Assembly (NCBI GenBank): GCA_016191285.1
Contig: JACPPA010000027.1
Coordinates: 41,603-105,602, forward strand
Origin: Gammaproteobacteria bacterium
GTDB taxonomy: Bacteria; Pseudomonadota; Gammaproteobacteria; Ga0077536
Reading direction: 5' to 3'
DNA length: 64,000 nucleotides
Positions within the stretch are counted from its first letter, which is position 1, and each line of letters starts with the position of its first letter. The notes under the pieces are model-generated. The model did no database searches, was not told where the DNA came from, and was given only the letters and a program-made list of their open reading frames with translations. Positions 1,506 to 56,878 of the stretch are shown one piece after another. The position numbers and the translations under genes are program-made.

Positions 1506-1510
1506 GGGTT

Positions 1511-15994: not shown

Positions 15995-16060
15995 GGTGCC
16001 GTTTCCGATGGGTTTAGCGAGATAGTCTTGTGCTTTAAGACACACGGGCGCTTAAATTCG

Positions 16061-16669
16061 TTACTTATTTGCAGCCTCGTATGATGCAACCTTAGCATTG
16101 AGTTTGGCAATAAGAGTGTCAATTCCGTTACTCCCTATAACGGCGGTGTACTCGGCGCGCTTTAGCGAAAGATCGGAGACGCCGTCAGCAACTACGTTAA
16201 TAATGCGCCACCCATCGGCTGATTTGCCCAGGGCATAGTCGAGGGTGTCTTCTTTACCATCTGGCTTAACGATGGCAGTTTTGACCAATTGCGCGTTCTT
16301 TTTGTCTTCCACGCCGCGCGTTTCAAATCGTTCGTTGCCAAACGAGCTGAAATTGTCGGCATACGTGGCGATACTGAGTTGAGTGAACACCGCGATGAAT
16401 GCTTGCTGCTTGGCCTTGTCGAGTTTCGCCCAATAGCGACCAGTGACCAGCCGTGCGATCCCGGCGAAATCAAAGGCGTCGCGCAAAACGGGCTCTAATT
16501 TCGAAGCGCGCCCTTTGTACCCCAAGGATTTTCCGTCCCGCATGGTTTCGAGTAGCGCGCTATGCAATTTCTCGACGGTGGCTTGCGGCGATGATTCAGC
16601 CGCATGGGCGGCCGGGGAACCTAGGCAGAGTGCGGCCAACCCGGCGATCAAGTAACGGTTAAAGCGCAT
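16061..16669 (-). CDS. hpnM: MlaC/Ttg2D-family periplasmic lipid-binding protein (HpnM-like)
   Basis: Signal peptide MRFNRYLIAGLAALCLGSPAAHA and a Ttg2D-like body (FDFAGIARLVTGRYW...). It lies between mlaA and hpnB. Confidence 0.6.
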   Translation of the reverse strand: MRFNRYLIAGLAALCLGSPAAHAAESSPQATVEKLHSALLETMRDGKSLGYKGRASKLEPVLRDAFDFAGIARLVTGRYWAKLDKAKQQAFIAVFTQLSIATYADNFSSFGNERFETRGVEDKKNAQLVKTAIVKPDGKEDTLDYALGKSADGWRIINVVADGVSDLSLKRAEYTAVIGSNGIDTLIAKLNAKVASYEAANK

Positions 16670-16719: not shown

Positions 16720-17871
16720 TTAATGATTGCTACCCGTCACGGCTGATGTTCTGCGGTCGTAGACCCGGTTCTTCCAGCGCGAACGCTCTCCGAACCAAAA
16801 TCTAACGGCGGAAGTCCAGGTCATCGCCAAGTATAAGAAGGCCGCGATTGGCAAACTCACCATCCACCACCAGCGGCGCCGATAATACTTCACCGTTGGC
16901 CAATAGGTCGTGAACATCAAGCACAAGGCGGCCAGCGCGGCGCCGCGGACGTAGGCGTCTTGAACACACAGGCCGAGCACTGGCACGGCGAAGAGCAGGA
17001 GCATTAAACCACTGCAAAGGATTAATAGCAGCGATGAATAGCGCAGCTGGGTGAACGCCGTCCGCGCGACCATGTTCCAGATCGAGGAGAGGTCGGGATA
17101 GGGCCGAATCGCGCGAACAGCCGTCGACAGCCCGAGCCACAACCGGCCGCCCGCGTCTTTGATCCTGCGCGCCAGGGTACAGTCGTCGATTAACGCGCCA
17201 CGCAACGCCGCGAAGCCGCCGATCGCGTGCAAGGCTTCAGTTCGAATTAACACACAGCCACCGGCCGCCGCCGCGACCCAACGGGTGGACGCATTCGTCA
17301 ACGCGAAGGGATACAGCAGTTTGAAAAAATAAATAAACGGCGGAATCAACAATGACTCCCACGCTGAAACCATCGAGAGTTTTGCCATTACCGACACCAT
17401 CGTTCGCTCTTCATCTTCTAGCTTCCGGACGAGTGCTGACAGGATCCCCGGGGCAAGTTCGATATCGGCATCGAGCAAAAGCGTATAAGAGCTTTCGACG
17501 AGTCCAAGTCCCTGGTGTAGCGCCCAGAGTTTTCCACTCCAACCCGGCTCGGGCGCGCTGCCGTAAACAATTTCCAGGGTTGCCAGATTTTCGGCACACG
17601 CCACCGCGGCAGTTCCATCGTCGCTTTGATCGTCGACCACGATGATTTTAGCCACCTGGCCTTGGGCCGCGACGCCGCGTAAGGTACGGCCTATGGAATC
17701 GGCCTCATCGCGGGCGGGAATCAACACCGAAACGCTGCTGAGATCGCATACGATGTGTCCACTGGGGAGCGCTTCGATATGTTCAGCGGTGCTCCAGGGG
17801 CGCCACGGCAGGAGCGCGATCACCAACCAAATTACCAGCGCCGCGGCGGCCAAGCTCGACCACGCGATCAT
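16720..17871 (-). CDS. hpnB: Hopene-associated family-2 glycosyltransferase HpnB
   Basis: GT2 core (VSVLIPARDEADSIGRTL..., VVDDQSDDGT, LLLDADI) plus C-terminal TM segments. It is adjacent to hpnH. I chose the ATG at 17871; the alternative is a TTG at 17922. Confidence 0.75.
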   Translation of the reverse strand: MIAWSSLAAAALVIWLVIALLPWRPWSTAEHIEALPSGHIVCDLSSVSVLIPARDEADSIGRTLRGVAAQGQVAKIIVVDDQSDDGTAAVACAENLATLEIVYGSAPEPGWSGKLWALHQGLGLVESSYTLLLDADIELAPGILSALVRKLEDEERTMVSVMAKLSMVSAWESLLIPPFIYFFKLLYPFALTNASTRWVAAAAGGCVLIRTEALHAIGGFAALRGALIDDCTLARRIKDAGGRLWLGLSTAVRAIRPYPDLSSIWNMVARTAFTQLRYSSLLLILCSGLMLLLFAVPVLGLCVQDAYVRGAALAALCLMFTTYWPTVKYYRRRWWWMVSLPIAAFLYLAMTWTSAVRFWFGERSRWKNRVYDRRTSAVTGSNH

Positions 17872-17932
17872 CGGGCGGAGCTTAACTTTATGGACGTGGG
17901 TTGGGCCGCCGGCACGGCCCAACCGCGAGGAT

Positions 17933-19063
17933 TCAAGCGACGCGCTTGGCGTTACTGCTACCGGCGGCGCTATCCGTCCGCGCGACTAAGCGTGGCTTCG
18001 CCACCGGTTCGTCCGTGTAGTGGAAGGGCACTTCGGGCGCCATGGCGCCGGTGGTGCGCGGTCCACGCAGCAATACCTTGAGTGCTTTTAGCGGATGGGT
18101 AACGGTGTCATTGACGGCCGTCGCTTCATAACCGCAGTGAACCATACAGTCGGCACATTTCGGATTAACGCCGGTCCCGTATTTCTCCCATGCCGTGTCT
18201 TCGATGAGCGACTTGAAACTGGTGGCATAGCCTTCGCCAACCAACAAATAGCACGGCTTCTGCCAGCCAAAGACGTTACGCGTTGGGTTCCCCCACGGCG
18301 TGCAGTGGTAGGTTTGATTTCCAGCCAGAAAGTCCAGATACAAGGTGGACTGATTGAAGCGCCAGCCGCGGCCTTTGCCCGTTTTGAAGAGGTCGCGGAA
18401 CAATTGCTTGCTGGAAGTACGCTTCAAAAAGACGTCTTGTCGTGGGGCTCGCTCGTAGCTGTAGCCGGGCGAGATCGTGACGCCTTCAACCCCGAGTTTC
18501 ATCATGTCATCCATGAACTGCGCGACTTCGTCGGCTGCTTCACCTTGGAACAGGGTGCAATTGACGGTAACGCGGAAGCCGCGGGCCAGCGCGATTTGAA
18601 TCACTTCGACGCACTTGTCGTAAACCCCGTCGCGACATACCGAAGCGTCGTGACGATCGCGATTACCATCGAGATGAATGGAGAAGGTTAAATAGGGCGA
18701 CGGCGTGTACTCGTCCATTTTTTTCTCGAGTAACAGCGCATTGGTGCAGAGGTAGACGAATTTCTTGCGCTCGATATAGCCCTGAACGATCTGTCGCATG
18801 TCGCGGTGAATCAGCGGTTCGCCGCCGGCAATCGAGACGATAGGCGCGCCGCATTCGTCGATGGCGGTCATGCAGTCTTCAAAGCTCAAGCGCTTGTCGA
18901 GGATATCGTCGGGATAATCAATTTTGCCGCAGCCGGCGCAGGCGAGATTACAGCGAAACAACGGCTCTAACATGAGCACTAAGGGAAAGCGTTTAACGCG
19001 CTTCAATTTCTGCGTGAGAACGTAGCGACCAACGCGATATTGCTGAATTAATGGAACGCCCAT
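17933..19063 (-). CDS. hpnH: Radical-SAM adenosylhopane synthase HpnH
   Basis: FPLVLMLEPLFRCNLACAGCGKIDYP contains the CxxxCxxC motif. 376 aa, with the typical HpnH N-terminus MGVPLIQQYRVGRYV. Confidence 0.9.
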   Translation of the reverse strand: MGVPLIQQYRVGRYVLTQKLKRVKRFPLVLMLEPLFRCNLACAGCGKIDYPDDILDKRLSFEDCMTAIDECGAPIVSIAGGEPLIHRDMRQIVQGYIERKKFVYLCTNALLLEKKMDEYTPSPYLTFSIHLDGNRDRHDASVCRDGVYDKCVEVIQIALARGFRVTVNCTLFQGEAADEVAQFMDDMMKLGVEGVTISPGYSYERAPRQDVFLKRTSSKQLFRDLFKTGKGRGWRFNQSTLYLDFLAGNQTYHCTPWGNPTRNVFGWQKPCYLLVGEGYATSFKSLIEDTAWEKYGTGVNPKCADCMVHCGYEATAVNDTVTHPLKALKVLLRGPRTTGAMAPEVPFHYTDEPVAKPRLVARTDSAAGSSNAKRVA

Positions 19064-19362: not shown

Positions 19363-21258
19363 ATGACCGAGTTCACCAATTACCCACTGCTGCAAAAGAT
19401 CGATTCGCCGCATGATCTACGCCAGCTCCCGGAATCAGCGTTAGAGCAAGTCGCTAAGGAACTACGGGCCTATTTACTGGAATCGGTGAGCAAAAGCGGC
19501 GGTCATTTTGCCGCCGGTCTCGGATCGATCGAACTTACCGTGGCATTACATTTCCTTTACGACACCCCCGAAGATCGAATCGTGTGGGATGTTGGTCATC
19601 AAGCGTATCCGCACAAGATTCTCACCGGCCGGCGCGATCGGATATCTTCGATCCGTAAATTAAATGGGCTTGCGCCGTTTCCGAAGCGCGATGAAAGCTC
19701 CTATGACACCTTCGGCGTGGGGCATTCGAGTACGTCCATCAGCGCGGCGCTCGGCATGGCCATTGCTGCCCAGCGGACGGGGAGTCACCGGCGCGCCATA
19801 GCCGTGATTGGTGACGGCGGACTGACGGCCGGCATGGCCTTCGAAGCCCTGAACCATGCCGGCGATATCGGCGCCAACCTGCTCGTGATCTTGAACGACA
19901 ACAACATGTCGATCTCGCCAAATGTCGGCGCGCTGTCGAATCGCTTTGCGCAAATATTGTCCGGCAAGTTGTACACTACGGTGCGTGAGGGCAGTAAAAA
20001 GGTGCTGTCGCAAATGCCGAGCGTGTGGGAACTCGCACGCCGTGCCGAAGAACATGTCAAGGGTCTGATTGTGCCGGGCACATTATTCGAAGAGTTCGGC
20101 TTCAATTACATTGGGCCGATTGACGGTCATCATCTGCCCACGCTGCTATCGACCTTACGCAATCTGCGTAAGCTCGAAGGGCCACAATTTCTGCACATCA
20201 TCACTAAGAAGGGCAAGGGCTACGCCCCGGCCGAAGCTGACCCAGTTAAGTATCATGGAGTTTCGCCGTTCGATCCAAAATTAGGGATTGTATCCGCGAC
20301 CAAGGTCAGCAAACCGACGTACAGCGATGTGTTCGGCGAATGGGTATGCGATATGGCCGCCATCGACGAACGTTTGGTCGCGATTACCCCAGCGATGCGC
20401 GAGGGCTCCGGGCTAGTGCGCTACGCGCGCGAATATCCCGCGCGTTATTTAGATGTCGCTATCGCAGAACAGCATGCGGTGGCGGTGGCCGCCGGGATGG
20501 CGTGCGATGGGTTAAAACCCGTAGTCGCCATCTATTCAACTTTTCTACAGCGCGCCTACGACCAGGTCGTTCACGACGTGGTGTTGCAGAAGCTGCCCGT
20601 GCTTTTCGCGCTCGACCGCGCGGGGCTGGTGGGCGCGGATGGTCCAACTCACAACGGTAGTTACGACGTGTCGTTCCTGCGCTGTCTGCCCGATCTCGTG
20701 TTAATGGCGCCCGCGGATGAAAACGAATGCCGCCAAATGTTATTTACTGGTTTTGTGCTTGGTCAGCCGGCGGCAGTGCGCTATCCGCGCGGTTCCGGCA
20801 CCGGCGTCGCGGTTGAAAAGCAGATGACCGCGCTACCCCTTGGTAAAGCGCAAATCCGGCGTCGCGGTCGCAAGCTAGCGTTGCTCGCCTTCGGCAGCAT
20901 GGTCGCGCCAGCCGAGGAGGTTGGTGAACGGATTGATGCGACGGTTGTGAACATGCGATTTATCAAACCTATTGATGAGGAGCTAATTCTCGAACTCGCA
21001 GCCAGCCACGATTTGCTGGTGACGTTGGATGAAAACGCGATCGCCGGTGGTGCTGGCGGCGCGATCGCTGAAACATTGGCAGCGCATGGCCGGGCCGTTG
21101 AACTGTTGCATATCGGGCTTCCAGATCGCGCAATCCAACACGGTTCGCGCGAGGAAATGCTAGTCGATGCTGGGCTAACGGCGATTCAGATTGAGCAAAC
21201 CTTGCGTCCGCGTTTATTGCGGCTTGATTCCCATACGCCGAGCGCTCGACTAGTCTAG
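19363..21258 (+). CDS. dxs: 1-deoxy-D-xylulose-5-phosphate synthase
   Basis: 631 aa with [35 protein letters not shown] and [18 protein letters not shown]. Confidence 0.97.
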
Positions 21259-21362: not shown

Positions 21363-22451
21363 TCAATCGGCCGTCGCGATAATTTCCTCAAACGCCGCGC
21401 ACAGCCGGCCCACATCCTGGGGGCTGATGGCACCCATCATCGAGATCCTAAAGATTCCAGCGGCGAGCGTGCTTTGACCGGCGTAGATCACAAACCCGCG
21501 CGCTTTCAGCGCGTCGTGAAATTCTCCGTAACTTAAACCTTGCGGTAATTCGAATGCGTGCAGGACGCACGAAGACGCGCCCTCGCGCAGTAGCGGACGC
21601 ACGCCAAGACGAATTAATAAATGCCGAACTTGGATGATGCGCGCGCGGTAAATATCGCGTCGCGCGTGCCAACCGCCTTCCGCTGCGAGTTCACACAAGG
21701 CAGCCGCCAGCGCATAAAAGGTTTGCACCGATTGCGTGAAGGGCGTGCCGTTTTTATCCTGGTGCTCGACATAGGTTTGCAGATCAAAATAGACGGTGCG
21801 TTTGGGTGATTGAGCCGCGGCCAGCGCGTCGCGTCGCACAATGACAAAACACGTACCAGGGACGCCATGCAGGCATTTATTGGCGGTAGCCGCCACCGCC
21901 GCGATTGGCCACTGCTCAAAATTAATTTCCTCCGCGCCAAAACTGCTGACTCCATCAAGCAGCAATTCCGCGCCGTGCTCGCGGCAAAGACTCGCCAGCG
22001 GCGCGAGATCGTTGAGCCGGCCGGTGGTCGTCTCATGATGGACCACGGCGACATGGGAAATTGCCGGATCTCCCCGCACGGTTGTTCGGATACGCGTGAG
22101 ATCAAGTTCCTCCAACCAGTCGTGGCGAAGTCGCTCGTAACGAATTGTGTGACGCTCGCAGATCGCGGCGATACGCTCGCCATAGACACCGTTTTCAAGC
22201 ACCAGGACTTTGCCGGTGCGTGGCACGAAGCTAGTCAGCATGGCTTCGACCGCGGCCGTGCCAGAGCCGGTAAGCAATACCGCCGCCCAGGCGTCCGGCG
22301 GCAACTGGTAAACCGCGAGTAGGCCGCGGCGAATTTCCGCTTGGAGATCGGCGAACTCTGGCTCGCGATGGCATAGGTCGGGGCCCAGCATCGACTCGCG
22401 AACGCGATCGGTAAGCGTAACGGGACCAGGATTGAGCAAGATGGTTTTCAC
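21363..22451 (-). CDS. phnW: 2-aminoethylphosphonate:pyruvate aminotransferase (class V)
   Basis: ILLNPGPVTLTDRVRESM, LLTGSGTAAVEAM and ATANKCLHGVPGTCFVIV motifs. GTG start in a GTGA overlap with the ppd stop. Confidence 0.8.
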   Translation of the reverse strand: MKTILLNPGPVTLTDRVRESMLGPDLCHREPEFADLQAEIRRGLLAVYQLPPDAWAAVLLTGSGTAAVEAMLTSFVPRTGKVLVLENGVYGERIAAICERHTIRYERLRHDWLEELDLTRIRTTVRGDPAISHVAVVHHETTTGRLNDLAPLASLCREHGAELLLDGVSSFGAEEINFEQWPIAAVAATANKCLHGVPGTCFVIVRRDALAAAQSPKRTVYFDLQTYVEHQDKNGTPFTQSVQTFYALAAALCELAAEGGWHARRDIYRARIIQVRHLLIRLGVRPLLREGASSCVLHAFELPQGLSYGEFHDALKARGFVIYAGQSTLAAGIFRISMMGAISPQDVGRLCAAFEEIIATAD

Positions 22452-23602
22452 AAGTTCGAGCCGAGATGGAGCCGCAAACGATCCAACACTTGCACCGGTG
22501 TGATCGCGGGTCGCGGCAAATTGTCGATCGTCCCGGTCGCGATCTTTAAATGCAGAAAATTGGGTCCGTCGCGCGTCGACGGTTTTAACACTTGGCGCAG
22601 TGCTTCGATATTGTTCCCACGAATGACTCGCGTATATCCACAGGCTTTGGCGATCTCCGCGAAATCCACATTCGCCGACACGGTCGCCTGTGCGCCGGTT
22701 GAGTCGTGCGCTTCGTTATCGAGCAGCACGTGATAAAGGTTGGTTGGCCCGTAGCTGCCCACAGTCGCGAAATTACCCATGCGCATCAACGCCGCGCCGT
22801 CGCCATCAACGACGATCACGCGCAGATCCGACCGTCGCAGCGCGAGACCTAAGCCAAGACTTGAAGCGCACCCCATCGAGCCCACCATATAAAAGTGGTT
22901 TGGGCGATCCGCTGTCGCATAGAGTTCGCGGCCGGTAAATCCGGTAGTCGCGATTACGATCGAATCGTCTTTCGCCTGGACACAGATCTCGTCCAAGACC
23001 GTAGCACGACTCAGGTATGGCGCGACCGTGGCCGGCGAACCAAGCGTCTCGATGACATGACAACGGTCGCGCGCCGCGACGCTTCGATTTTCGAGCGGAC
23101 GCGATTCAACCGCGCCTTTTTGCATGATTAATGCGTACGGCCGGCGTTCCGTCGCCATGTAGTCGGTGGCTCGCGTGAGCACCGGTTCGATTTTTTCGAT
23201 AGTGTCCGGAAAAGCCTCCGATGGGATGCGCATCGTATCGAATAGCTCGGTGGTGATTTGCCCCATCAGTTCATGTTGCGGTTCGTCAGCGACCCCGGGT
23301 GCGCCGCGATGCGTGCAGATCACCAACATCGGTATGCGAAACACATACGCCAGTGACGTGAGCGGGCTAATCGCGTTGCCGAGTCCAGAATTTTGCATCA
23401 TGGCGACACCGCGTGTGCCAGCGAGAAATGCGCCAGCAACGGTCGCGACCGCATCGCCTTCGTTGGCCGATGAAATATAGGTCAATGTCGGGGAGTCGAT
23501 CACCTGGTTGATGAATGGTGTCAGAAAAGAGCACGGCACTCCGGCATAGAATTCAAACCCGTGCGCGCGGGCCCGCGTAATGAAATCAGCGGCCTTTATC
23601 AC
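22448..23602 (-). CDS. ppd: Phosphonopyruvate decarboxylase (ThDP-dependent)
   Basis: 384 aa with GFEFYAGVPCSFLTPFIN and a ThDP motif region (VVDGDGAALMRMGNFATVG...LDNEAHDSTG). Confidence 0.85.
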   Translation of the reverse strand: MIKAADFITRARAHGFEFYAGVPCSFLTPFINQVIDSPTLTYISSANEGDAVATVAGAFLAGTRGVAMMQNSGLGNAISPLTSLAYVFRIPMLVICTHRGAPGVADEPQHELMGQITTELFDTMRIPSEAFPDTIEKIEPVLTRATDYMATERRPYALIMQKGAVESRPLENRSVAARDRCHVIETLGSPATVAPYLSRATVLDEICVQAKDDSIVIATTGFTGRELYATADRPNHFYMVGSMGCASSLGLGLALRRSDLRVIVVDGDGAALMRMGNFATVGSYGPTNLYHVLLDNEAHDSTGAQATVSANVDFAEIAKACGYTRVIRGNNIEALRQVLKPSTRDGPNFLHLKIATGTIDNLPRPAITPVQVLDRLRLHLGSNL

Positions 23603-23614
23603 TGCAACTACACG

Positions 23615-25267
23615 CTAGCCGGTGAGGCCGGCGAACGAACGCGCGGGTTCCAGATCTTTGACCGAATTAACGTCCAACCAATGACCGTGGACGTACCACA
23701 CGTGCACGGGTTTGCCATTCAGCACGAGGCTGTTTAGTAGATCCGGCATTCCCAATCGGGCGAAATCTGCGCGTAATTGCAACGCGTTCAAGATGTCCTC
23801 GAACCAGCGACGCCCTTCATTTTGAATTCGAACCATGCCAATCCAACGCCCATTGGCGCGATTTCCCGCCTGGTCCGCGGTTCTAGTCAATTGCTTCAGC
23901 GTGACTGCCTGTCCCCACATCGCGCGGTCATCGGATTCACTGCAAAATGCGAAATCACCGGTTTCGTTTGGCGCCCGGCTAACACTCGAGTCCACGACGA
24001 TGGTAATCGCGGCATCGTTTTCGATCAGATCGCGCAATATGTAGCTGCGAAACAATAGATCGCCATAGGTCACGATCATATCGTCCGCGAAGCAATGCCG
24101 AGCGCACACCAAGGAGGCCAATTCGCCCGTGGTTTCATGTTCACGGTTCATCAGCAGCCGAATACCGTTCACGTCGATACTATCGGCCTTGTAGCCGGCG
24201 ACGACGGTAATGTCGTCAACGCCACGCTTTTTGAATTTATCCACGAGATGCCGCAGCAACGGCTTACCACTGATCGGCAACATGACTTTTGGCCGATCAT
24301 CGGTCAGCGTCGAGAAACCGTCGCCGCGCGATGCCGCGAGCACAATCGCCTTACTCTCAGTCCGAGTATTCGAAAAATAGCGTTCTTCCGCGGCCTCGAG
24401 TTCATCGGCGCCTTGTAATCGAAATATCTCATCAACCGTCGCGATTCGATCTTCGATTTCGATCAGCGATTGATCAGCAAAAATCTTTGCGGCTGACTGC
24501 TGCATCGCGCTGACCGCGCTGCGAATCATGTGATTGGCCCAGATCACCAAACTAATTTGGGCGCGGCGAAAGACTTCCACCGGGGTGCTGTAGTATTTCG
24601 TCGGGACGATGACCAGCGGTGCACGATTCGACCACTCTTTGGAAAACTCAAGAATTTGATCGGGCCGCGATAGCTTGCTGTGAATCAGAATCGCGTCAGC
24701 GCCGGCGCGGCGATAGGCTTCGGCGCGGCGTAGCGCCTCGCCGATATCCCAGCCTGCGATCAGGGCCTCGACGCGGGCGATGATCGAAAAATCGGGATCG
24801 TTTTGGATGTCCTTGCCGGCTGAAATCTTGCCGCTGAATTCGTTAATGTCGGCGAGCGGTTGCCGTTCACCACCGATAAAGCTGTTGGTTTTGGGAAATA
24901 TCTTGTCTTCGATGCAAACGCCCGCGATATCGCGCTGCTCAAGTTTGCGCACCAAGCGACGCATATTGTTGAAATTGCCGTAGCCGGTGTCGCCATCGAG
25001 CAAAATGGGTACCGCGGTGACATCCGACATGAATTCGAGGTTGTCGACCACCTGAGTCCAGCTCGCCTCGTTGTTATCGCGCACGCCAAATTGCGCCGAA
25101 ATGGCGAGACCGCTCGCCCAAATGCCAGAGAACCCGGCTTCCTCCACAATTCGCGCGCTAATGCCATTGTGTGCTTCGCAAATAAATTCTAGATTCGGCG
25201 ATTGCAGCAGCGCTTTTAAGCGAGTCGCTTTACGGATTCTCGGTGAACTACTGTCAGACGCGACCAT
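23615..25267 (-). CDS. pepM: Phosphoenolpyruvate mutase fused to a C-terminal nucleotidyltransferase (PntC-like) domain
   Basis: The first ~290 aa are PepM: [56 protein letters not shown] and [13 protein letters not shown]. The C-terminal ~250 aa are nucleotidyltransferase-like: [34 protein letters not shown]. Confidence 0.85.
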
Positions 25268-26000
25268 TTTGTAGCCTCGGTAGGATTTCGTGTCGAGCGC
25301 GCTCGATATCTTCCGGAAAGTCGATTTCGAGCCAGGGCAAGCCGCTAATGTCTTCGACGCCGAGTGGCACGCCGCCGGTCATGATCAGGTCGCGTAGCGC
25401 TTCTTCATACGGTGCATCAAGCAGGTCGCGCGCGACATAGCGTTCGCATTGTGCCGCTAACGCCGCTGCCCCCAGGCGATCGAATTTAAAAAAGCCGACA
25501 GACTCACCACAGTAATCATAGGCGATTCCTGGGTCGAGCTGTTTCCTAAATTCAACGATCTTGTCGGCTCGTAGGCACAACTTAACCGGCTCGTCGCCCG
25601 GTATAAAGTCGCGATCCAATAAAAAACAATTACGATGCGCGCTGCGAATGAGTCGCGTCATGATCGCGGGGTCATACAGCACGTCGGCGTCCATCAAGAT
25701 CACGTCGTCGCCAGTGTTGAGCGCAGCGCGCACCGTCCACAAACTCACCACACTCCCGCGACGATAGTCGGCATTGCGCACCGAGCTAACGTTGCTTATC
25801 CCGCAGGCATTTACCGCGCCGATAAGTTCTTCGCCTTGATAGCCGACGCACAGGGTAATTTGGGTGATGGCGTGCGCCGCGAGGATGCGTAGGTGGCGAT
25901 GAATTAGCGACTCACCGCCAAACTCGAGTAAGGCTTTGGGTCGGGCGCCGAGCGCGCCGAGTCGATTGCCGATTCCGGCCGCTAGGATAATTGCCTGCAT
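25254..26000 (-). CDS. LicC-family nucleotidyltransferase (stand-alone, PntC/LicC-like)
   Basis: [37 protein letters not shown] carries the G-x-G-x-R-L NTP-transferase signature. The ~250-aa LicC-like architecture overlaps the pepM start by 14 nt. Confidence 0.7.
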
Positions 26001-26003
26001 GGA

Positions 26004-26750
26004 TTAAGAGGCTCGTCTGCCGAAGATTTGCTTAAATCCGAAATAGGCGATCGCATCCTTCATATTTGAGACAAACCGCCGCGTTGGATTGATGTAGGTA
26101 TTGGTGAGATATTCGAGCGTTAACACCACGCGTTCTTCGCCCGCACCGAGCGCGGTCACGCGATGATAGAGTTTATCGCCATTGAACAAAACGAGCCGCC
26201 CCGGCGGCAGATCGAGGCTCAACACTTCGGTCTCTCGAATTGGATCGTTTTTATACAACTGACATTCCAAACGGCAGCTCGACTTATCGATAAGACCGAT
26301 CAACACCGTATAACGTTCGCCTTGGTAGTACGACGTATCGTAGTGATAGCCTACGTGATCTCCTTCCTCGGTGTAGTAATACAGTGCGTAGGCGTGCGGA
26401 TCGCTGTTCGGGCATACGTGCAACCGTTTTTGCGTCAGGGTTTCGAGCGTGTTGAGTAACGGCGGGGAGGCATAGAGGGCTTTAAACTCGAACGCAGCCA
26501 GATCGAGGTGAAATGCGCTGATACTGCCGCCTTTTTTGTGCCCCGGAATATAATTCCGATGGAGCTGCGGGCGGAGTTCATGGGCGCGAGTAATTAAGCG
26601 TTTCAAAACGTCGTTCGGCACGCATTGATCGATCACCACAAACTCCGCCTGGGTCGTGAACTCAGCGCGTAGGCGCTCGAGCGGTAGCCGCCGGAGGTGA
26701 TTCGCCAAGCTTGCTTCGTCGTCGCGCGTAACGCTGGCGAGGGGCGTCAT
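26004..26750 (-). CDS. Putative Fe(II)/2-oxoglutarate-dependent oxygenase-like protein
   Basis: Candidate facial triad: HxD in GYHYDTSYY plus a distal His in LVLFNGDKLYHRVT, followed by ERVVLTLEY. I prefer the ATG at 26750 because it forms an ATGA overlap with the hpnA stop. The function is not recognised beyond the fold. Confidence 0.45.
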   Translation of the reverse strand: MTPLASVTRDDEASLANHLRRLPLERLRAEFTTQAEFVVIDQCVPNDVLKRLITRAHELRPQLHRNYIPGHKKGGSISAFHLDLAAFEFKALYASPPLLNTLETLTQKRLHVCPNSDPHAYALYYYTEEGDHVGYHYDTSYYQGERYTVLIGLIDKSSCRLECQLYKNDPIRETEVLSLDLPPGRLVLFNGDKLYHRVTALGAGEERVVLTLEYLTNTYINPTRRFVSNMKDAIAYFGFKQIFGRRAS

Positions 26751-27736
26751 GATTGACCACGCGAGAACCACGCGACGGCATCGGAGATCGCGCTAGACGC
26801 GGGTCGATGGTGATAGCCCAGTTCCGACTCGGCCCGCGAGCTATCGAAAAACATGCGTTTGCGCGACATGCGCAGGCCGTCGACGGTCACCTGAGGTTCC
26901 GCGCCATCCGTTACCCATGCCCAGGCTTCGGAGAGGTAAGCAATGGGGTAAACCAGCGCGCGTGGCAGTCGAATGCGCGGCGGCGCTCGACCGCAGCATT
27001 CGGCAATGGCGGTGAGGATTTCCTTAAGACTCAAGTTCTCGCCGCCTAAAATATAGCGACGGCCAACGCTGCCGCGGTCAAACGCTAGTACGTGACCCGC
27101 GGCGACATCGTCGACATGCACAATATTGAGACCCGTATCAACATACGCCGGTATTTTATTGCGCGCGGCATCGCGAATAACGCGCCCGGTCGGCGTCGGT
27201 TTGATGTCGTAGGGTCCGATGGGAGTCGACGGATTGACGATAATGGCTGGCAGTTGGCGGGTCTGCACGAATTCGTGCACGAGCGCTTCCGCTAAAAACT
27301 TCGAACGCTTGTAATGGCCAATCATATTCGACAACTGTACCGGCGCATTTTCATCGCTTGGGCTTCCGTCGTCATGCAGACCCAAGGTTGCGACGCTGCT
27401 GGTATACACCACGCGCGTGACGCTCGCCGCGAGGGCTGCCTCCATCAAATTGCGGGTGCCGTCAACATTGCTTGCGTACAAATCGTTGGGATTGCGCGTC
27501 CACAAACGGTAGTCGGCGGCGACGTGAAACACCGCCTCGACGCCCCTGCAGGCGTCACGTAGCGAGGCCGGGTTACGCAGGTCGCCGTCCACGCATTCGA
27601 TGGCCAAGCCGCTGAGGTTGCGCCGATCGCTCCCGGGGCGCGCAATGACGCGGACCGCGTCGCCCCTGGACAATAATTGACGCACAACTGCGCTCCCAAC
27701 GAAGCCAGTGGCGCCCGTGACAAGACAGTGGGTCAA
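26747..27736 (-). CDS. hpnA: Hopanoid-associated NAD-dependent sugar epimerase/dehydratase HpnA
   Basis: The Rossmann motif VTGATGFVGSAV follows directly after the TTG at 27736, which forms a TTGA overlap with the upstream stop. SDR-type YxxxK is present (YKRSK). The track's longer ORF to 27820 overlaps the preceding gene. Confidence 0.8.
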   Translation of the reverse strand: MTHCLVTGATGFVGSAVVRQLLSRGDAVRVIARPGSDRRNLSGLAIECVDGDLRNPASLRDACRGVEAVFHVAADYRLWTRNPNDLYASNVDGTRNLMEAALAASVTRVVYTSSVATLGLHDDGSPSDENAPVQLSNMIGHYKRSKFLAEALVHEFVQTRQLPAIIVNPSTPIGPYDIKPTPTGRVIRDAARNKIPAYVDTGLNIVHVDDVAAGHVLAFDRGSVGRRYILGGENLSLKEILTAIAECCGRAPPRIRLPRALVYPIAYLSEAWAWVTDGAEPQVTVDGLRMSRKRMFFDSSRAESELGYHHRPASSAISDAVAWFSRGQS

Positions 27737-28329
27737 ACGCGTTTTTCGAGCGCGATGTATTGCGCTGCACTGGCCGCGAGAGCAATGGGCGCCCCAATCG
27801 CGGCGGCAATCAAGAACCACTCCAAGCCATTGGCCAGCGTCACCAACGGCAAACCGTAAAGGATGTCCTCCGCTTCAACTCCGCCGAGTTTCGGTTGCGC
27901 CGTCGCCGCCTTGCCGTATTGTCGCTCAACGTTGTTACGTAGTTGAAAAATCCCTGCGACCGAAATTCCGGCCAGCGCACCTAACCATAACGCGCCCGAG
28001 CCGAGTGACGTGGCGAGACCAATCCCGATGCAAAAAAAAAGTCCAACCGTGACCAGGCCGTCTGCCGCCAAATCGTAATTATGGCCGAATTTACTTGCTT
28101 GGCCGCTAAGCCGTGCCAGCTCGCCGTCGGTGTGGTCAAGGAAATTTGAAACGACGATGATCAAAGCCGCGATATCGTCGGCGCCGCCCTGCGCAAATAG
28201 CGCCGCGCCAATAACGCCCACGATTAGACGTAACGTGGTTAAATGGTTGGGCGTGACACCGCTACCACGGAGCGGAGCGACGACGATCGCGGCTAACCGT
28301 GCATCCCAAGGTTTGTAGCTTTGCGCCAT
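27733..28329 (-). CDS. CDP-alcohol phosphatidyltransferase-family membrane protein
   Basis: 198 aa, multi-TM. The family motif D-G-x2-A-R-x8-G-x3-D-x3-D appears as DHTDGELARLSGQASKFGHNYDLAAD. Confidence 0.8.
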   Translation of the reverse strand: MAQSYKPWDARLAAIVVAPLRGSGVTPNHLTTLRLIVGVIGAALFAQGGADDIAALIIVVSNFLDHTDGELARLSGQASKFGHNYDLAADGLVTVGLFFCIGIGLATSLGSGALWLGALAGISVAGIFQLRNNVERQYGKAATAQPKLGGVEAEDILYGLPLVTLANGLEWFLIAAAIGAPIALAASAAQYIALEKRV

Positions 28330-28331
28330 GG

Positions 28332-29069
28332 CTAGGCGGATTTCGTCAGTGAGGGGTGGCTATATTCGCATGGCAGCGCGGCGGCGGCACGCTTGAGGTG
28401 CTTTAATGCTGAACCGTATTGCAGCCCCAAACGTAGCAACGCGAGTAACTCCCACGGCCGCCGACCACTCGCCACGACCACTCGCCACGCCGAATGATTG
28501 GAAGGGCCGAGCGCCACCAATGCCGTGGCCGTGAGTGATGTCGTCGCCGGATCCGAAATCACGCGGAGTCCGGCGAAACCCAGACCATGGGTGCGGGCGA
28601 CAGCGGCGATCGCCGCTGATTCCATATCTACGGCCGCGCATCGGTAACGCCGGTTTAACCCTGCCTTTTCGTGCGGCATCGTGACCGGCGCCGAAACAGA
28701 GAGTCCGATGCGTTGGCGGACATTTAGATGGTTTAAGCGGGTCATGGTTTGCTCGATCCAGCGGGGATCGCAGCGATACTCGGTTTCGGTCGCGGCATCG
28801 ATCACAGAGGTATACAGAATCAAATTACCCGCCTGCAATTCAGCTTCAAGCCCACCGGCGACACCCCACGACACGAGTAGCTCAGCACCTTGCGCGACTA
28901 ATGTATTCGCAGCGGCAGTTGCGGCGGCTGATCCAATCCCACCGCACGCCACTCGCGGCCATTCGGCAACCGATCGCGCGCGCCGGCCGAGTGTCGCGGC
29001 CTCGGCGGGCATGGCGGTCACGAAGCCTATCCGCTGAAGGCGTGCGCGGTGCTCGTCGTTTGCGATCAT
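28332..29069 (-). CDS. hpnG: Hopanoid-associated nucleosidase/phosphorylase HpnG (PNP/UDP family)
   Basis: 245 aa with IGFVTAMPAEAATL, WGVAGGL and AVDMESAAIA. ATGA overlap with the sqs stop. Confidence 0.8.
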   Translation of the reverse strand: MIANDEHRARLQRIGFVTAMPAEAATLGRRARSVAEWPRVACGGIGSAAATAAANTLVAQGAELLVSWGVAGGLEAELQAGNLILYTSVIDAATETEYRCDPRWIEQTMTRLNHLNVRQRIGLSVSAPVTMPHEKAGLNRRYRCAAVDMESAAIAAVARTHGLGFAGLRVISDPATTSLTATALVALGPSNHSAWRVVVASGRRPWELLALLRLGLQYGSALKHLKRAAAALPCEYSHPSLTKSA

Positions 29070-30172
29070 GATCTGGAATGCTGAGCTTCAAGTCCTTCAA
29101 TATAGGTCGGTCCGCACGCCACAATATCGAGGCGCGGCAAGCCCCGCGACGAGACATAGAATAGTGCGCGTAACGCCGTGTTATTCGTGGCCGCAAGGCT
29201 GGTGGCGGCGATCGTTAGTTGCACTTGGCGACGAGATATTTTGACCTCTGTGCTCGATCTGAATAGTGGGTTCGTATTGATCTTGCGCAAAGTCAGTACC
29301 GCCATCCCTAATGCCCACAGGCAAAATTTTCGGATCCCAGCCTGCTCCGGCGGAATCTTCAACGTATAGCGCAAGGCATTTTGCAAATGACCGTGGGTCA
29401 CCCCGACTAGCTGTTGGATGACGGCGGCGAACTCCACGCCGCCATTGCCAGGGTTCAAGTCGCTTAGGCGAAGGCCATGATGCGCGAACTCATCTCGCGG
29501 TAACCAGCAGGCACCGCGTGCGCGGTCATCCCAAATATCCTTGAGAATATTGGTCATCTGCAGACCTTGACCGAACGAAACCGCGAGACGCATGAGTTCG
29601 TCGGCTGCGGTGCGCAAAGTTTGACAGTAGTCACAAAATAGTTCGGTTAGCATTTCGCCGACTACGCCAGCGACGTAATAGCAGTAGCGATCGAGCGCGC
29701 GTTGATCACTGACCCCCTCCAGCGTTTCTTGCCCTTGATAAAACACCATGCCGTCGAGCATCACGCGTACGCAGCGTTCAAGAGCATTGCGTTGAGTCGG
29801 ATTCAAGGAGTGTGTAATGCGCAAGACTCGATCAGCGTTGGCAATCAGATCGCGTTCGTCTGCGGAATTGTGGGCGGCTAGTTGTGGCGCAAGCTCTTGG
29901 CCAAAGTGAACTGGGCCCGCGCTGCTCTGTACAGCGCGCAAAAAAAGCGCCGAATAGTGCCGCTTGAGTTCGAATGGCAATGTCGCATCATCCTCGATCG
30001 TGTCTGCGATTCGACACAGCAAGTAAGCGTTTGCGACGGCCCGATAGAGGCCTTCGGGTAAGACTGGAATGGTTAACGCGAAGGTTCGCGAAACCCCTTG
30101 CAGGATGTGCGCTTGGTACTCGTCATCGGTAAGCGTCGAAAACCTTGCGAGCACCACAGCCTCCAAGTGCAC
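29066..30172 (-). CDS. sqs: Squalene synthase (farnesyl-diphosphate farnesyltransferase)
   Basis: 368 aa with LQGVSRTFALTIPVLPEGLYRAVANAYLLCRIADTIEDD and a second Asp-rich region (ILKDIWDD). This is the single-protein SQS type, not HpnC/D/E. Confidence 0.8.
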   Translation of the reverse strand: MHLEAVVLARFSTLTDDEYQAHILQGVSRTFALTIPVLPEGLYRAVANAYLLCRIADTIEDDATLPFELKRHYSALFLRAVQSSAGPVHFGQELAPQLAAHNSADERDLIANADRVLRITHSLNPTQRNALERCVRVMLDGMVFYQGQETLEGVSDQRALDRYCYYVAGVVGEMLTELFCDYCQTLRTAADELMRLAVSFGQGLQMTNILKDIWDDRARGACWLPRDEFAHHGLRLSDLNPGNGGVEFAAVIQQLVGVTHGHLQNALRYTLKIPPEQAGIRKFCLWALGMAVLTLRKINTNPLFRSSTEVKISRRQVQLTIAATSLAATNNTALRALFYVSSRGLPRLDIVACGPTYIEGLEAQHSRS

Positions 30173-30230: not shown

Positions 30231-30307
30231 TGGTCGGGGTGACAGGATTCGAACCTGCGACCCCTGCCTCCCGAAGGCAGTGCTCTACCAGACTGAGCTA
30301 CACCCCG
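30231..30307 (-). tRNA. tRNA-Pro (anticodon CGG)
   Basis: The reverse complement reads CGGGGTGTAGCTCAGTCTGGTAGAGCACTGCCTTCGGGAGGCAGGGGTCGCAGGTTCGAATCCTGTCACCCCGACCA. It folds as a cloverleaf with anticodon loop TTCGGGA and an encoded CCA. Confidence 0.93.
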
Positions 30308-30328: not shown

Positions 30329-31318
30329 CTAGAAGCTACGACTCGCGGCGAATTCCGCGAGCGCCTTCAGCGCATCTAAGTAGGGTGAAGGCTGTACCGG
30401 TGCGAGCGCTGCGTGCGCCTTAGCCGCCTCCTGCTTAGCGAGCCGCAAAGTGTAAGTGATGGCACCGGTCGATTCAATTGCCGATGTGATGTCATCCAGG
30501 TGATCGCGACCGCCTCCGCGGATGGCGGCATCGATTATCTGCGTCTGCGGCGGCGTTCCATGCCACATCGCATAGAGCAACGGCAACGTGGGTTTCCCTT
30601 CGGCGAGATCGTCCCCGAGGTTCTTGCCCAATTCGGCCTCGACGGCTTGATAATCCAAGGCATCGTCGACCAGCTGAAAGGCAGTCCCCAAGTGGCGGCC
30701 GTAAGCTGCCAATGCGCTTTCGAGCCGGACGCCGCCGGTCGCGACCACCACGCCTAATTGCGCCGCCGCTTCGAATAACTTTGCCGTTTTGAAGCGAATC
30801 GTGTCGAGATAACGCTGTTCTGAAATTGCTGGATCATGGCAATTAATGAGCTGCATGACCTCGCCTTCCGCGATGATGTTGGTGGCATCGGCCAAGATCT
30901 CTAGGACGCGTAGGTTTTGGAGTTCCACCATCATTTGAAAGGCTCTGGAATACAGGAAGTCGCCGACTAACACACTGGCTTCATTGCCCCAGATCAAATT
31001 GGCGGTTTCGCGACCGCGACGCATGCGCGAGGCATCTACTACATCGTCGTGGAGGAGCGTAGCGGTGTGGACGAGCTCGACAATGACCGCGATCTCGACA
31101 TGTTGCCGGCCGGCATAGCCTGTTGCGCGCGCCGCGAGGAGGGCCAGGGCGGGCCGCAGGCGCTTGCCGCCGCCGGCCACAATGTAGGTGCTCAGCTGGT
31201 TGATGAGTTCAACCTCGGAGTACAGTCGGCTGCCGATCAAGCGATCGACTTCCGCCATATCGCCGGCTATAAGTTGTCGCAAGGCCTCAATTTCAGGAGA
31301 TTTAACAGCGGCTCTCAA
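30329..31318 (-). CDS. ispB: Octaprenyl-diphosphate synthase
   Basis: GGKRLRPAL, LLHDDVVD and FQLVDDALD motifs. It is divergent from rplU, as in many gammaproteobacteria. Confidence 0.9.
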   Translation of the reverse strand: MRAAVKSPEIEALRQLIAGDMAEVDRLIGSRLYSEVELINQLSTYIVAGGGKRLRPALALLAARATGYAGRQHVEIAVIVELVHTATLLHDDVVDASRMRRGRETANLIWGNEASVLVGDFLYSRAFQMMVELQNLRVLEILADATNIIAEGEVMQLINCHDPAISEQRYLDTIRFKTAKLFEAAAQLGVVVATGGVRLESALAAYGRHLGTAFQLVDDALDYQAVEAELGKNLGDDLAEGKPTLPLLYAMWHGTPPQTQIIDAAIRGGGRDHLDDITSAIESTGAITYTLRLAKQEAAKAHAALAPVQPSPYLDALKALAEFAASRSF

Positions 31319-32105: not shown

Positions 32106-33190
<1,085 letters not shown>

Positions 33191-45294: not shown

Positions 45295-45321
45295 CGTTTA
45301 ATACTCCATGACCATGCGGGC

Positions 45322-45969: not shown

Positions 45970-45973
45970 GACG

Positions 45974-48265: not shown

Positions 48266-48457
48266 GCCAATGAGTATCGTCCGTGGATCGCGCCCGCGCA
48301 CCCGCCATTCAGTTGAACGGTAGGAATCGACCAACCAGCGGTCGTTAGTCTTTCTTCGCGAAGGCTTTAGGCGTGACCGCGGTCACACAATGCGATGTTC
48401 CGGTCAGCACCGTCTCGTTACCTGGACTCCGCAACGTTCCTGCGTATACTGCCCCGC

Positions 48458-56413: not shown

Positions 56414-56878
56414 TATCGACTCCTCCAGACAATTGCTTTGCCGCAAGACGTGCTTGACGCGGTGCGGCGCCTGGGATCGCATTCTGACATCCGGCGCCGC
56501 CTGTGATTCTAAACGCAGCGCGAAGGGCCGGCACCCCCTTCCGAAACCTTGCGAAAGATTAAGTGAGGGATCAATTTCACTGAAGGACGGTGACGCCAAG
56601 CGACCAGACGGTCCCACGGAGGTCGGCAGCGGGATCGACCGAACCGAGCCGGTGAGCGGAGAGCGCTATACCGTTAAGCGGTACGGGAGCGAGAAGGCGC
56701 GGTGCTTCTTGGCGTAATTCCCGGATTACATTTAAACCAATCAACCCCGATTTCGAACCGATCGTCTCTACGGACGCGGATGAAGGAGAACTGCAGGTGA
56801 TTGCTGAAGTCCTGGAAATGCTTCCTGCGTAGACTTTGGGTGCCCGGCGAGCTGGAATGCAACGACCATGCTCAGCAC

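Follow-up and report, generated by a model that had tools for sequence, protein, structure and literature searches.

The question raised by this locus is what a bacterium would make with a gene array in which hopanoid genes are interleaved with genes for the synthesis and activation of a phosphonate. The array lies on the minus strand at positions 21363-30172 of a 64,000-nt stretch of a gammaproteobacterial contig (JACPPA010000027.1), here called the window. Its gene order is sqs, an hpnG-like gene, a CDP-alcohol phosphotransferase gene (CDPOH), hpnA, a 2-oxoglutarate (2OG)/Fe(II) oxygenase gene, a gene for a stand-alone PntC-like nucleotidyltransferase (NT), a gene fusing phosphoenolpyruvate (PEP) mutase to a second NT domain (pepM-NT), ppd and the 2-aminoethylphosphonate (2-AEP) transaminase gene (AEPT). 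The nine genes most likely form a composite lipid operon, in which the hopanoid genes sqs, hpnG-like and hpnA are interspersed with six of the seven genes that make up the core of a known phosphonate cluster, Group 1.

The phosphonate half has been described before, by Yu et al. (2013) as the "Group 1 phosphonolipid" cluster and later as the "Burkholderiales_CDP-OH" family (Li & Horsman 2022, PMC8942020). It is the commonest ppm neighbourhood in RefSeq (318 of 882) and is found in every Burkholderia genome analysed; its product was never characterised, no phosphonolipid has been isolated from it, and a 1-hydroxy-substituted phosphonate was predicted (PMC8942020). The same cluster was drawn for a lichen Nostoc, with an "hpnL" gene included (PMC5987646). 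The set and order of the Group 1 genes, which encode CDPOH, an alpha-ketoglutarate/Fe oxygenase, a stand-alone PntC, a Ppm-PntC fusion, Ppd and AEPT, match those of the window. The window proteins are 46-64% identical to their counterparts in Burkholderia, Trinickia and Mycetohabitans, and its oxygenase and stand-alone NT have orthologues in the Burkholderia, Trinickia and Nostoc modules that share 44-59% identity with them. The window differs in that the seventh core gene, which encodes an HpnL-like LPG_synthase_TM protein, is absent from the 64 kb, as it is from the closest subclade (L002-L009 and L012), in that hpnA stands between CDPOH and the other module genes, and in that the module is run into one overlapping array with sqs and hpnG. 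The cluster is thus not categorically new: it is a variant of a bioinformatically defined family, within a loosely noted class of "phosphonate-terpene" hybrids. An earlier note on this DNA, made from the letters of the window, had described the combination of hopanoid side-chain genes with a complete 2-AEP activation pathway; the combination itself stood, as it recurs in other taxa, but its novelty was overstated, Group 1 having already been described (PMC8942020).

Organization of the array and identity of its products

Direct inspection of the sequence bore out the coordinates of the nine head-to-tail ORFs in the earlier note and its description of all eight junctions. Four junctions are 4-nt overlaps of start and stop codons (ATGA at 29066-29069, TTGA at 27733-27736, ATGA at 26747-26750 and GTGA at 22448-22451). 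The others are a 2-nt gap (TAG-CC-ATG) at 28330-28331 between the hpnG-like gene and CDPOH, a 3-nt gap at 26001-26003 between the oxygenase and stand-alone NT genes, a 14-nt overlap at 25254-25267 between the latter and pepM-NT, and a 12-nt gap at 23603-23614 between pepM-NT and ppd. As far as co-directional genes and overlapping or very short junctions indicate, the array would be organized as an operon.

Three start codons deserve comment. For hpnA we infer TTG at 27736, because the hidden Markov model (HMM) match begins at residue 31 of the longer ORF and because the hpnA call in L003, a relative with 94% identity, has 329 amino acids. For sqs, GTG at 30154 is more likely than 30172, because it has a GGAGG 5 nt upstream and agrees with the 362-residue call in L003. 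The oxygenase start is ambiguous, either ATG at 26750, which gives the ATGA overlap, or TTG at 26708, 14 codons later; the 234-residue call of the source contig (P0121) would leave a gap of about 38 nt instead of the overlap.

A consensus scan of 20.9-32.2 kb found three promoter-like sites versus 6.2 expected, and 16 terminator-like sites versus a shuffle expectation of 13.6 ± 4.0. Neither scan exceeds the shuffle expectation, and therefore they neither support nor contradict a single transcript. The sole convincing terminator in the scanned 11 kb is a strong hairpin with an 11-bp stem and a T-run at 32106-32130 (+), between the rplU-rpmA pair and obg. The array region is flat in GC content.

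Gene products were identified with NCBIfam models against their curated cut-offs, Pfam, motif checks and structure comparisons (Table 1). The pepM-NT gene is a single ORF of 550 codons with PF13714 and PF12804 domains. Its PEP mutase part matches the Mytilus enzyme (1M1B, E 5e-126) and carries the Ppm-specific motif EDKxxxxxNS at residue 120, and ppd and AEPT follow directly downstream.

The stand-alone NT matches Tde1415 PntC (6PD1), a characterised AEP cytidylyltransferase, from end to end (E 9.5e-16). In PntC, the loop GxG(T/S)Rx4-8PK provides a catalytic Arg and Lys, and Glu104 and Glu196 of the Tde enzyme bind the amine of AEP (PMC6697681). The window protein has the loop G9-I-G-N-R...P-K, which keeps the Arg and Lys of GxGxR...PK with Asn in place of Thr/Ser, and E199 as the equivalent of Glu196, whereas D104 replaces Glu104. 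It also differs from Tde1415 and Ari1348 PntC (PMC6697681; 6PD1/6PD2) in having no transaminase fusion, and its activity is a predicted one.

The NT domain fused to PEP mutase shows a non-canonical loop, LAA(S/G/T)RG...(R/K)PK, which in the window reads LAASRGDG...RPK (residues ~306-330). This loop is kept in more than 90% of 57 homologues, which does not support a decayed pseudo-domain and indicates instead a maintained variant. The domain may be catalytic, act on another substrate or serve in regulation, and the variant loop may account for the presence of two NTs in the core.

Members of the BesD/HalD family have a double-stranded beta-helix fold, iron ligands of either the 2-His-1-carboxylate (hydroxylase) or the HxG/A (halogenase) type, and a 2OG-binding Arg. 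The oxygenase contains the residues H136-x-D138...H196 and R207, which are at least 95% conserved in 50 homologues and invariant in an alignment of 24 sequences. Its AlphaFold2 (AF2) model (pLDDT 88.9) is closest, with TM ~0.7, to HalB, HalD, HalA and BesD, which are free-amino-acid halogenases, and to the hydroxylase homologue 7JSD. BesD has H-x-G at the position aligned with H-x-D of the window protein. Because Asp stands where BesD has Gly, the protein is predicted to be of the hydroxylase type, with a putative substrate, and a halogenase role was ruled out, as the iron motif contains Asp and not Gly/Ala. Since this hydroxylase-type triad belongs to a gene of the conserved core, the head group is probably 1-hydroxy-2-AEP. 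Of the AEP head group expected in the earlier note, phosphonate activation was retained and the plain AEP form is the less probable one.

CDPOH, the proposed head-group transferase, shows the complete motif D65xxD68G69xxA72R73x8G82xxxD86xxxD90, which is invariant in 16 homologues. Its AF2 model (pLDDT 90.8) is that of a six-helix integral membrane enzyme, and its closest folds are AF2299 (TM 0.80) and IPCT-DIPPS (TM 0.73), followed by phosphatidylinositol-phosphate (PIP) synthases, with CEPT1/CHPT1 lower. It reaches no NCBIfam equivalog cut-off, the best match being archaetidylinositol-phosphate synthase at 54 bits versus 180. Motif and six-helix core place it in the PF01066 superfamily with a predicted transferase activity. 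It has more than 3600 relatives in the protein collection searched, and relatives occur in at least 580 species-representative genomes.

The IPCT-DIPPS enzyme of Archaeoglobus fulgidus (4MND) and AF2299 (4O6M) are the top sequence and structure matches for CDPOH and, after PntC, for the NT. In these systems an NT activates a phospho-compound, which a six-helix CDPOH domain transfers to a polyol hydroxyl with release of CMP. However, identity is only 20-22%, the NT and CDPOH of the window are separate proteins, the donor would be a C-P conjugate, and the acceptor would be a membrane lipid instead of a soluble inositol phosphate.

Among the hopanoid genes, HpnA is assigned above its cut-off. The HpnG and squalene synthase assignments are at family level, as best matches below their cut-offs that are backed by synteny. 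The hpnG-like gene is the least conserved of the array, with 32-48% identity in non-close relatives, and keeps its position between sqs and the hpn genes.

Recurrence of the link in other genomes

With the window proteins 85 loci were scored, to which annotated replicons were added. Linkage of cluster homologues to hpn genes elsewhere, which the earlier note had set beforehand as the test that could overturn its proposal, clearly recurs across taxa: the module adjoins hopanoid genes in at least five arrangements, in Gamma-, Beta- and Alphaproteobacteria and in one cyanobacterium.

The first arrangement (layout A) is found in 38 of the 85 loci, all of uncultured Gammaproteobacteria and including the window. 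Its order is sqs-hpnG-[hpnN]-CDPOH-hpnA-[hpnL]-oxygenase-NT-pepM/NT-ppd-aepT, then dxs and hpnH. In these 38 loci CDPOH lies between hpnG or hpnN and hpnA, with 50-77% protein identity, and the start of HpnA is within a few nucleotides of the CDPOH stop in all of them (38/38), in the window as the TTGA overlap. An insert of ~880 amino acids in 18 of the loci is a bona fide HpnN (905 bits versus a cut-off of 752). Because the order and the tight CDPOH-hpnA junction persist in these 38 loci at a protein identity to the window of only 50-77%, sequence comparison indicates that the array is more than a chance juxtaposition.

The second arrangement (layout B) comprises four Steroidobacteraceae-type loci with all genes on a single strand, in the order hpnH-ispB-sqs-shc-hpnG-hpnA-CDPOH-oxygenase-hpnL-NT-pepM/NT-ppd-aepT-omp85; as in layout A, sqs heads the array. 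In Mycetohabitans rhizoxinica HKI 454 and Pararobbsia alpina the module is intact, and behind it come dxs, an HpnN-like transporter, ispH, hpnH, hpnA, hpnB and shc. The alphaproteobacterium Roseomonas marmotae has a rearranged module without the oxygenase between hpnN/dxs and ispH-hpnH-hpnG-shc-hpnEDC-hpnB-hpnA. In Nostocales HT-58-2, hpnH and hpnA are located 2.5 kb past the transaminase. Pararobbsia and Nostocales HT-58-2 had appeared as stand-alone with 10-kb flanks, an artefact that disappeared in wider flanks. The isoprenoid gene dxs adjoins the transaminase gene or the module in layout A, Mycetohabitans, Pararobbsia and Roseomonas.

Two metagenome-assembled genomes of Chromatiales (L018 and L029) show hpnN-CDPOH-hpnA followed by unrelated housekeeping genes, with no phosphonate gene within 6-10 kb. 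In this clade CDPOH segregates with hopanoid genes and not with pepM, since hpnN-CDPOH-hpnA stays together where phosphonate genes are not nearby. A 582-residue ORF of L029 was considered as a natural CDPOH-HpnA fusion, but CDPOH and hpnA are read in different frames there and the ORF is merely the HpnA frame extended upstream in GC-rich DNA, so the fusion was rejected.

In a rough neighbour-joining tree of PepM-NT, layout A forms one large clade, sister to the cyanobacterial modules, and layout B a separate subclade among stand-alone Steroidobacteraceae modules. Their separation in the tree indicates that the phosphonate-hopanoid juxtaposition arose several times. The extra core gene of the stand-alone modules encodes a bona fide HpnL (TIGR03476, 320 bits versus a cut-off of 196). 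Furthermore, shc is present on 14 of the 15 PLSDB replicons that have the full-length fusion gene, and every named carrier found belongs to a hopanoid-producing lineage.

Other neighbours of the module were observed. An Omp85-family outer-membrane protein gene flanks it, on either side, in 14 Steroidobacteraceae-type loci (L034, 1528-2868, and 13 others), which hints at a product destined for the outer membrane. In Nostocales (L036, 8341-9996; L061, L068, L076 and L079-L082), a gene encoding a B12-binding radical-SAM protein with DUF4070 always precedes CDPOH, even where the remaining module is 300 kb away. Its best match is the PhpK-family P-methyltransferase (82 bits, far below cut-off), followed more weakly by HpnJ and HpnR. 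Besides this gene, the cyanobacterial CDPOH locus L036 shows only unrelated housekeeping genes.

A link between phosphonates and terpenes has been mentioned earlier only in passing, in four papers. Nitrosococcus oceani has a "phosphonate-terpene" antiSMASH call (GCF 731; PMC7285500, PMC8942020), the genome paper of Pandoraea sp. ISTKB carries the same label (PMC5987411), and Guzman & Vilcinskas suggested an "undiscovered terpene-phosphonate" for acidophilic Acetobacteraceae (PMC8776678). These hybrids resemble the window in that ppm, ppd and aept are physically linked with squalene or hopanoid genes, and the Roseomonas example (L090) has homologous CDPOH, HpnL, NT and fusion genes, although it has no oxygenase and has hpnCDE in place of sqs. 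However, each report devotes a single line to it, as an antiSMASH or BiG-SCAPE remark that neither dissects the cluster nor identifies a transferase nor offers chemistry, and the gene link found here is much stronger than they indicate. In turn, of two hopanoid-focused studies (including 10.1101/2025.07.29.667474), one found the HpnL family enriched beside shc and the other found it absent from alphaproteobacterial genomes without hpnH; both describe HpnA, HpnB and HpnL as proteins of unknown function, and neither mentions phosphonates. The two literatures thus each hold half of the link, with no cross-citation on it.

In Table S8 of 10.1101/2025.07.29.667474, which covers 3662 shc loci, family "6" (IPR000462, CDP-alcohol phosphatidyltransferase) appears 1409 times at a distance of up to 20 ORFs, which outnumbers hpnG (1398) and hpnN (1333), and a CDP-alcohol-transferase/MobA-NT fusion is listed twice; this family may or may not be the CDPOH subfamily of the window, and its count is a lead and not evidence. 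In B. cenocepacia (two replicons) and C. metallidurans, the 20 kb on either side of shc contained no CDP-alcohol transferase gene.

The proposed pathway and its putative lipid acceptor

In the proposed pathway, PEP is converted to phosphonopyruvate by PEP mutase, to phosphonoacetaldehyde by Ppd and to 2-AEP by the transaminase, assignments that are shown at the level of enzyme families. The BesD/HalD-fold hydroxylase would convert 2-AEP, probably to 1-hydroxy-2-AEP; hydroxylation seems dispensable, because the Roseomonas module is without the oxygenase. The PntC-like enzyme, judged by its closest characterised relative, would form the CMP-phosphonate, and CDPOH, by the mechanism of its family, would release CMP and join the phosphonyl group in an ester bond to a membrane-lipid hydroxyl. 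This lipid would most likely be a bacteriohopanepolyol, with the phosphonyl group on the polyol side chain built by HpnH and HpnG, possibly with HpnA, and the product a phosphono-hopanoid such as a bacteriohopanetetrol (BHT) conjugate, BHT-(1-hydroxy-)AEP. The underlying logic of the earlier note, in which PepM, Ppd and the transaminase make 2-AEP, a LicC/PntC enzyme makes a CMP conjugate and CDPOH transfers it to a hydroxyl acceptor, is backed by the family models, motifs and structure comparisons.

These proposals differ in firmness. It is probable that a phosphonyl head group is placed on a membrane lipid, whichever it may be, by a pathway functionally tied to hopanoids. The whole scheme with a bacteriohopanepolyol acceptor we regard as almost evenly balanced between right and wrong. 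That the product is a phosphono-hopanoid, in which the bacteriohopanepolyol side chain is esterified to 2-AEP or 1-hydroxy-2-AEP, is a tentative assignment, somewhat more apt to fail than to hold. The formulas computed for such products are C37H68NO6P for BHT-AEP ([M+H]+ 654.4857) and C37H68NO7P for BHT-1-hydroxy-AEP ([M+H]+ 670.4806).

The same set of enzymes would also suit a Kennedy-type reaction, like that of an ethanolamine phosphotransferase, in which the acceptor is diacylglycerol, or another glycerolipid or ceramide. It would yield a phosphonolipid resembling phosphatidylethanolamine (PE), and clustering with hpn genes would then reflect co-regulation or a shared export of envelope-toughening lipids. 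This is the published prediction for the family, under the name "Group 1 phosphonolipids" (PMC8942020, PMC5987646), and we consider it possible, though rather doubtful. Diacylglycerol is a precedented acceptor of the superfamily, and CEPT1 and CHPT1 are detectable structural relatives of CDPOH; however, the closest folds are DIPPS and PIP synthases, which use polyol acceptors. The stand-alone modules of Burkholderia and Cupriavidus and the split module of Chlorogloeopsis suggest that the unit works away from hpn genes, but HpnL ties even the stand-alone module to hopanoid biology. Also against a diacylglycerol acceptor stands the nesting of CDPOH between hpnG or hpnN and hpnA, with its tight junction kept and with CDPOH staying there where no phosphonate genes are near. 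Diacylglycerol is universal, yet the named carriers are all of hopanoid-producing lineages, and PepM and Ppd correlate with squalene-hopene cyclase (SHC). A bacteriohopanepolyol is thus favoured over diacylglycerol because of the nested and repeatedly re-created linkage, the behaviour of CDPOH in broken-up modules, HpnL and the phyletic pattern.

Mass could hide either product. According to their computed formulas, 1-hydroxy-AEP and phosphoethanolamine are both C2H8NO4P, so that diacylglyceryl-1-hydroxy-AEP would be isobaric with PE, of which it is an exact isomer, and the BHT conjugate with a hypothetical BHT-phosphoethanolamine. These isobaric masses may explain why ordinary mass spectrometry (MS) lipidomics never flagged the product, and for the diacylglycerol lipid in particular they could explain its being overlooked.

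Several points weigh against a bacteriohopanepolyol acceptor. Known acceptors of CDP-alcohol phosphotransferases are diacylglycerol, glycerol-3-phosphate, serine and inositol phosphate, and we know of no such enzyme that uses a triterpenoid polyol. Nor, to our knowledge, has any phosphorus-containing hopanoid been reported in decades of bacteriohopanepolyol surveys that included Burkholderia, Nostoc and nitrifiers. The literature search returned no phosphorus-containing hopanoid and no identified product of the Group 1 cluster. Within the window shc, hpnN and hpnL are absent, and a tblastn search for HpnL at E 1e-3 was empty. No hpn gene was found within 16-18 kb of the module (20-kb flanks) in B. 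cenocepacia, B. multivorans and Cupriavidus sp. P-10; with 10-kb flanks, many modules of Steroidobacteraceae, Trinickia and Nostoc look stand-alone as well; and the Chlorogloeopsis module is split ~300 kb apart, with neither part near hpn genes. Because true stand-alone and split modules exist, the hopanoid acceptor can be put forward only conditionally. The loci counted for linkage are not phylogenetically independent and represent about five events, and the genes could lie together because of co-regulation or shared envelope-lipid transport instead of a shared product. Finally, one line of support for the hopanoid link is uncorrected for phylogeny: among the functions that correlate with SHC presence in Table S7 of 10.1101/2025.07.29.667474, for GTDB Gammaproteobacteria including Burkholderiales, are PEP phosphomutase, with r = 0.43 (p = 3e-58), and phosphonopyruvate decarboxylase, with r = 0.38 (p = 1e-46).

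Two observations on these cases are set beside them. In Chlorogloeopsis fritschii PCC 6912 an IS605 OrfB/TnpB-like gene (L091, 10943-12136) lies between the oxygenase and NT genes, and small extra ORFs part pepM, ppd and aepT, so this copy of the module looks disrupted or in flux. The chemical-genetic data for B. cenocepacia (bioRxiv 2024.01.03.574096) mention only a PhnU-like permease and are not relevant here.

It is also conceivable that the two halves share no function, the phosphonate being placed on a glycan, a protein or a soluble metabolite and the module having landed or been retained beside a lipid gene island. Most characterised bacterial AEP decorations sit on glycans (PMC6697681), and the promoter and terminator scans leave room for internal transcription units. 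However, CDPOH is a six-helix membrane enzyme of a lipid-synthesis superfamily and not a LicD-type glycan transferase, at least five independent hpn-adjacent arrangements in four bacterial classes are very unlikely by chance, and the junctions in the window consist of four overlaps and gaps of at most 12 nt, which makes this explanation improbable.

A reversed scheme, in which the hydroxyl of 1-hydroxy-2-AEP would accept a lipid from CDP-diacylglycerol, or from a CDP-ribosylhopane made by one of the two NTs from the phosphoribosyl product of HpnG, to give a product with a free phosphonate, is highly improbable. In its favour, the next relatives of CDPOH after AF2299 and DIPPS are PIP synthases, whose substrates are a soluble polyol phosphate and CDP-diacylglycerol, the needed hydroxyl would come from the hydroxylase, and the two core NTs are otherwise unexplained. 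Against it, Roseomonas keeps CDPOH without the oxygenase, so that a hydroxylated acceptor is not essential; the full-length match of the stand-alone NT is closest to a characterised AEP cytidylyltransferase; and activation of the phosphonate is the very reason for the enrichment of PntC-type enzymes in phosphonate clusters (PMC6697681).

The preferred scheme, transfer of an activated phosphonate to a bacteriohopanepolyol, has partial parallels. Known tailoring enzymes of the hopanoid side chain are HpnI, HpnJ and HpnK, which lead to BHT-glucosamine and the cyclitol ether, and HpnO, which leads to aminotriol. Their genes likewise lie inside hpn clusters and the enzymes act on the C35 polyol side chain provided by HpnH and HpnG; they differ in using glycosyl transfer, radical-SAM chemistry and transamination, with no phosphorus. 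None of hpnI, hpnJ, hpnK and hpnO was seen in the window. The only known bacterial lipid with a hydroxylated AEP head group is the 1-hydroxy-2-AEP sphingophosphonolipid of Bacteriovorax stolpii (cited in PMC8942020), which carries the head group predicted for the window pathway. It differs in its ceramide backbone, and its gene cluster belongs to the distant family GCF 761 (PMC8942020).

If the acceptor is a hopanoid, the pathway would provide a new class of hopanoid or biomarker lipids, the first C-P-bearing triterpenoid and a new route of C-P bonds into membranes. It would also supply the long-missing product of the most abundant phosphonate cluster family in sequenced bacteria and a first function for the HpnL/HpnA neighbourhood, and the presence of the module in at least 580 species-representative genomes would imply that soils, lakes and glacier-fed streams hold a widespread unseen sink of reduced phosphorus. 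Should diacylglycerol be the acceptor, routine MS1 lipidomics would miscount the lipid as PE in Burkholderia and many environmental bacteria. The supplementary tables of hopanoid researchers themselves hold the correlation of PEP mutase with SHC, on which the main text is silent as regards phosphonates. Cultured and genetically tractable carriers are available in Mycetohabitans rhizoxinica, Roseomonas marmotae, Nitrosococcus and Burkholderia. Gene tags in these carriers are RBRH_RS14505 (CDPOH) and RBRH_RS14485 (aepX) for M. rhizoxinica HKI 454, IAI58_RS18630 and RS18650 for R. marmotae 1318, and NOC_RS07100-RS07285 for Nitrosococcus oceani.

Surroundings of the array and other features of the window

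The array is embedded in hopanoid and isoprenoid gene surroundings (Table 1), with ispH ~8 kb away.

Table 1. Array genes and adjoining features of the window, in order of position, with the matches on which each assignment is based
Feature	Position	Strand	Evidence
MlaA/VacJ-like lipoprotein	15230..16045	-	PF04333, 240 bits; "HpnS" family of preprint 10.1101/2025.07.29.667474
hpnM, MlaC-like hopanoid-associated periplasmic protein	16061..16669	-	TIGR03481, 209.3 bits (cut-off 160.1)
hpnB, hopene-associated glycosyltransferase	16720..17922	-	TIGR03469, 386.8 bits (cut-off 379.25)
hpnH, adenosylhopane synthase (radical SAM)	17933..19063	-	TIGR03470, 551.6 bits (cut-off 225)
dxs, isoprenoid precursor supply	19363..21258	+	TIGR00204, 898 bits; convergent with the transaminase gene
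AEPT, 2-aminoethylphosphonate aminotransferase	21363..22451	-	TIGR03301, 408 bits (cut-off 360.8)
ppd, phosphonopyruvate decarboxylase (Ppd/AepY)	22448..23602	-	TIGR03297, 438 bits (cut-off 312.5)
pepM-NT, PEP mutase with C-terminal PF12804 NT domain	23615..25267	-	TIGR02320, 388 bits (cut-off 319.55)
Stand-alone PntC-like (LicC-family) cytidylyltransferase	25254..26000	-	PF12804; best solved relative Tde1415 PntC (6PD1)
2OG/Fe(II) hydroxylase, BesD/HalD fold, predicted	26004..26750	-	PF23169 HalD, 40.7 bits (cut-off 26)
hpnA, hopanoid-associated short-chain dehydrogenase/reductase ("sugar epimerase")	26747..27736	-	TIGR03466, 487.7 bits (cut-off 367.65)
CDPOH, 198 aa, proposed head-group transferase	27733..28329	-	PF01066
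hpnG-like, purine-nucleoside-phosphorylase family, adenosylhopane nucleosidase/phosphorylase candidate	28332..29069	-	PF01048; best match TIGR03468 HpnG, 153.5 bits (below cut-off 187.1)
sqs, squalene-synthase-type SQS_PSY	29066..30172	-	PF00494, 200 bits; TIGR01559, 107 bits (below cut-off 287)
tRNA-Pro(CGG)	30231..30307	-	ARAGORN and Rfam; followed by a T-run; between ispB and sqs
ispB-like polyprenyl diphosphate synthase	30329..31318	-	NF008140, 412 bits (equal to cut-off); PF00348; syntenic in subclade

The tRNA-Pro(CGG) gene, overlooked in the earlier note, lies directly upstream of sqs and marks the upstream boundary of the nine-gene array. It is found between ispB and sqs in all 10 loci of the subclade of the window and in none of the other layouts. 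A recent genomic island at this tRNA is unlikely, given the flat GC content and the ispB-tRNA-sqs synteny kept at 60-77% protein identity. The Rfam scan for leaders or riboswitches returned two tRNAs only.

The absence of shc, hpnN and hpnL from the window had likewise been overlooked. In related loci shc is located inside the array (L018 and layout B) and hpnN is present in 18 loci; in the genome of the window shc and hpnN are presumably encoded elsewhere. The MlaA/VacJ-like gene and hpnM lie side by side (15230-16669, -) and adjoin hpnB and hpnH, an arrangement that matches the "hpnS-hpnM" pair, which has been proposed as a hopanoid trafficking system working with HpnN (preprint 10.1101/2025.07.29.667474).

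Further features were noted in the rest of the window. A type IV pilus minor-pilin operon at 40093-48334 (-) encodes a GspH/FimU-like protein, a PilV-like pilin, PilW and PilX, and ends with a PilY1-like protein that is unusually long (1733 amino acids) and whose family match is limited to the C-terminal beta-propeller. An IS66-family transposase (51832-53415) is found beside oxygenase genes, and GC skew drops sharply at 52-54 kb. The latter genes encode an HsaA-like flavin monooxygenase subunit (54131-55273; 240 bits versus a cut-off of 450) and a Rieske/VanA-type oxygenase with a weak SdmA-like match (55334-56617; 79 bits versus 600). At 675-4051 (-), a PP2C-type Ser/Thr phosphatase gene is followed by a gene encoding a protein of 846 amino acids, in which a long and uncharacterised N-terminal part precedes a PknB-type kinase domain at the C-terminus.

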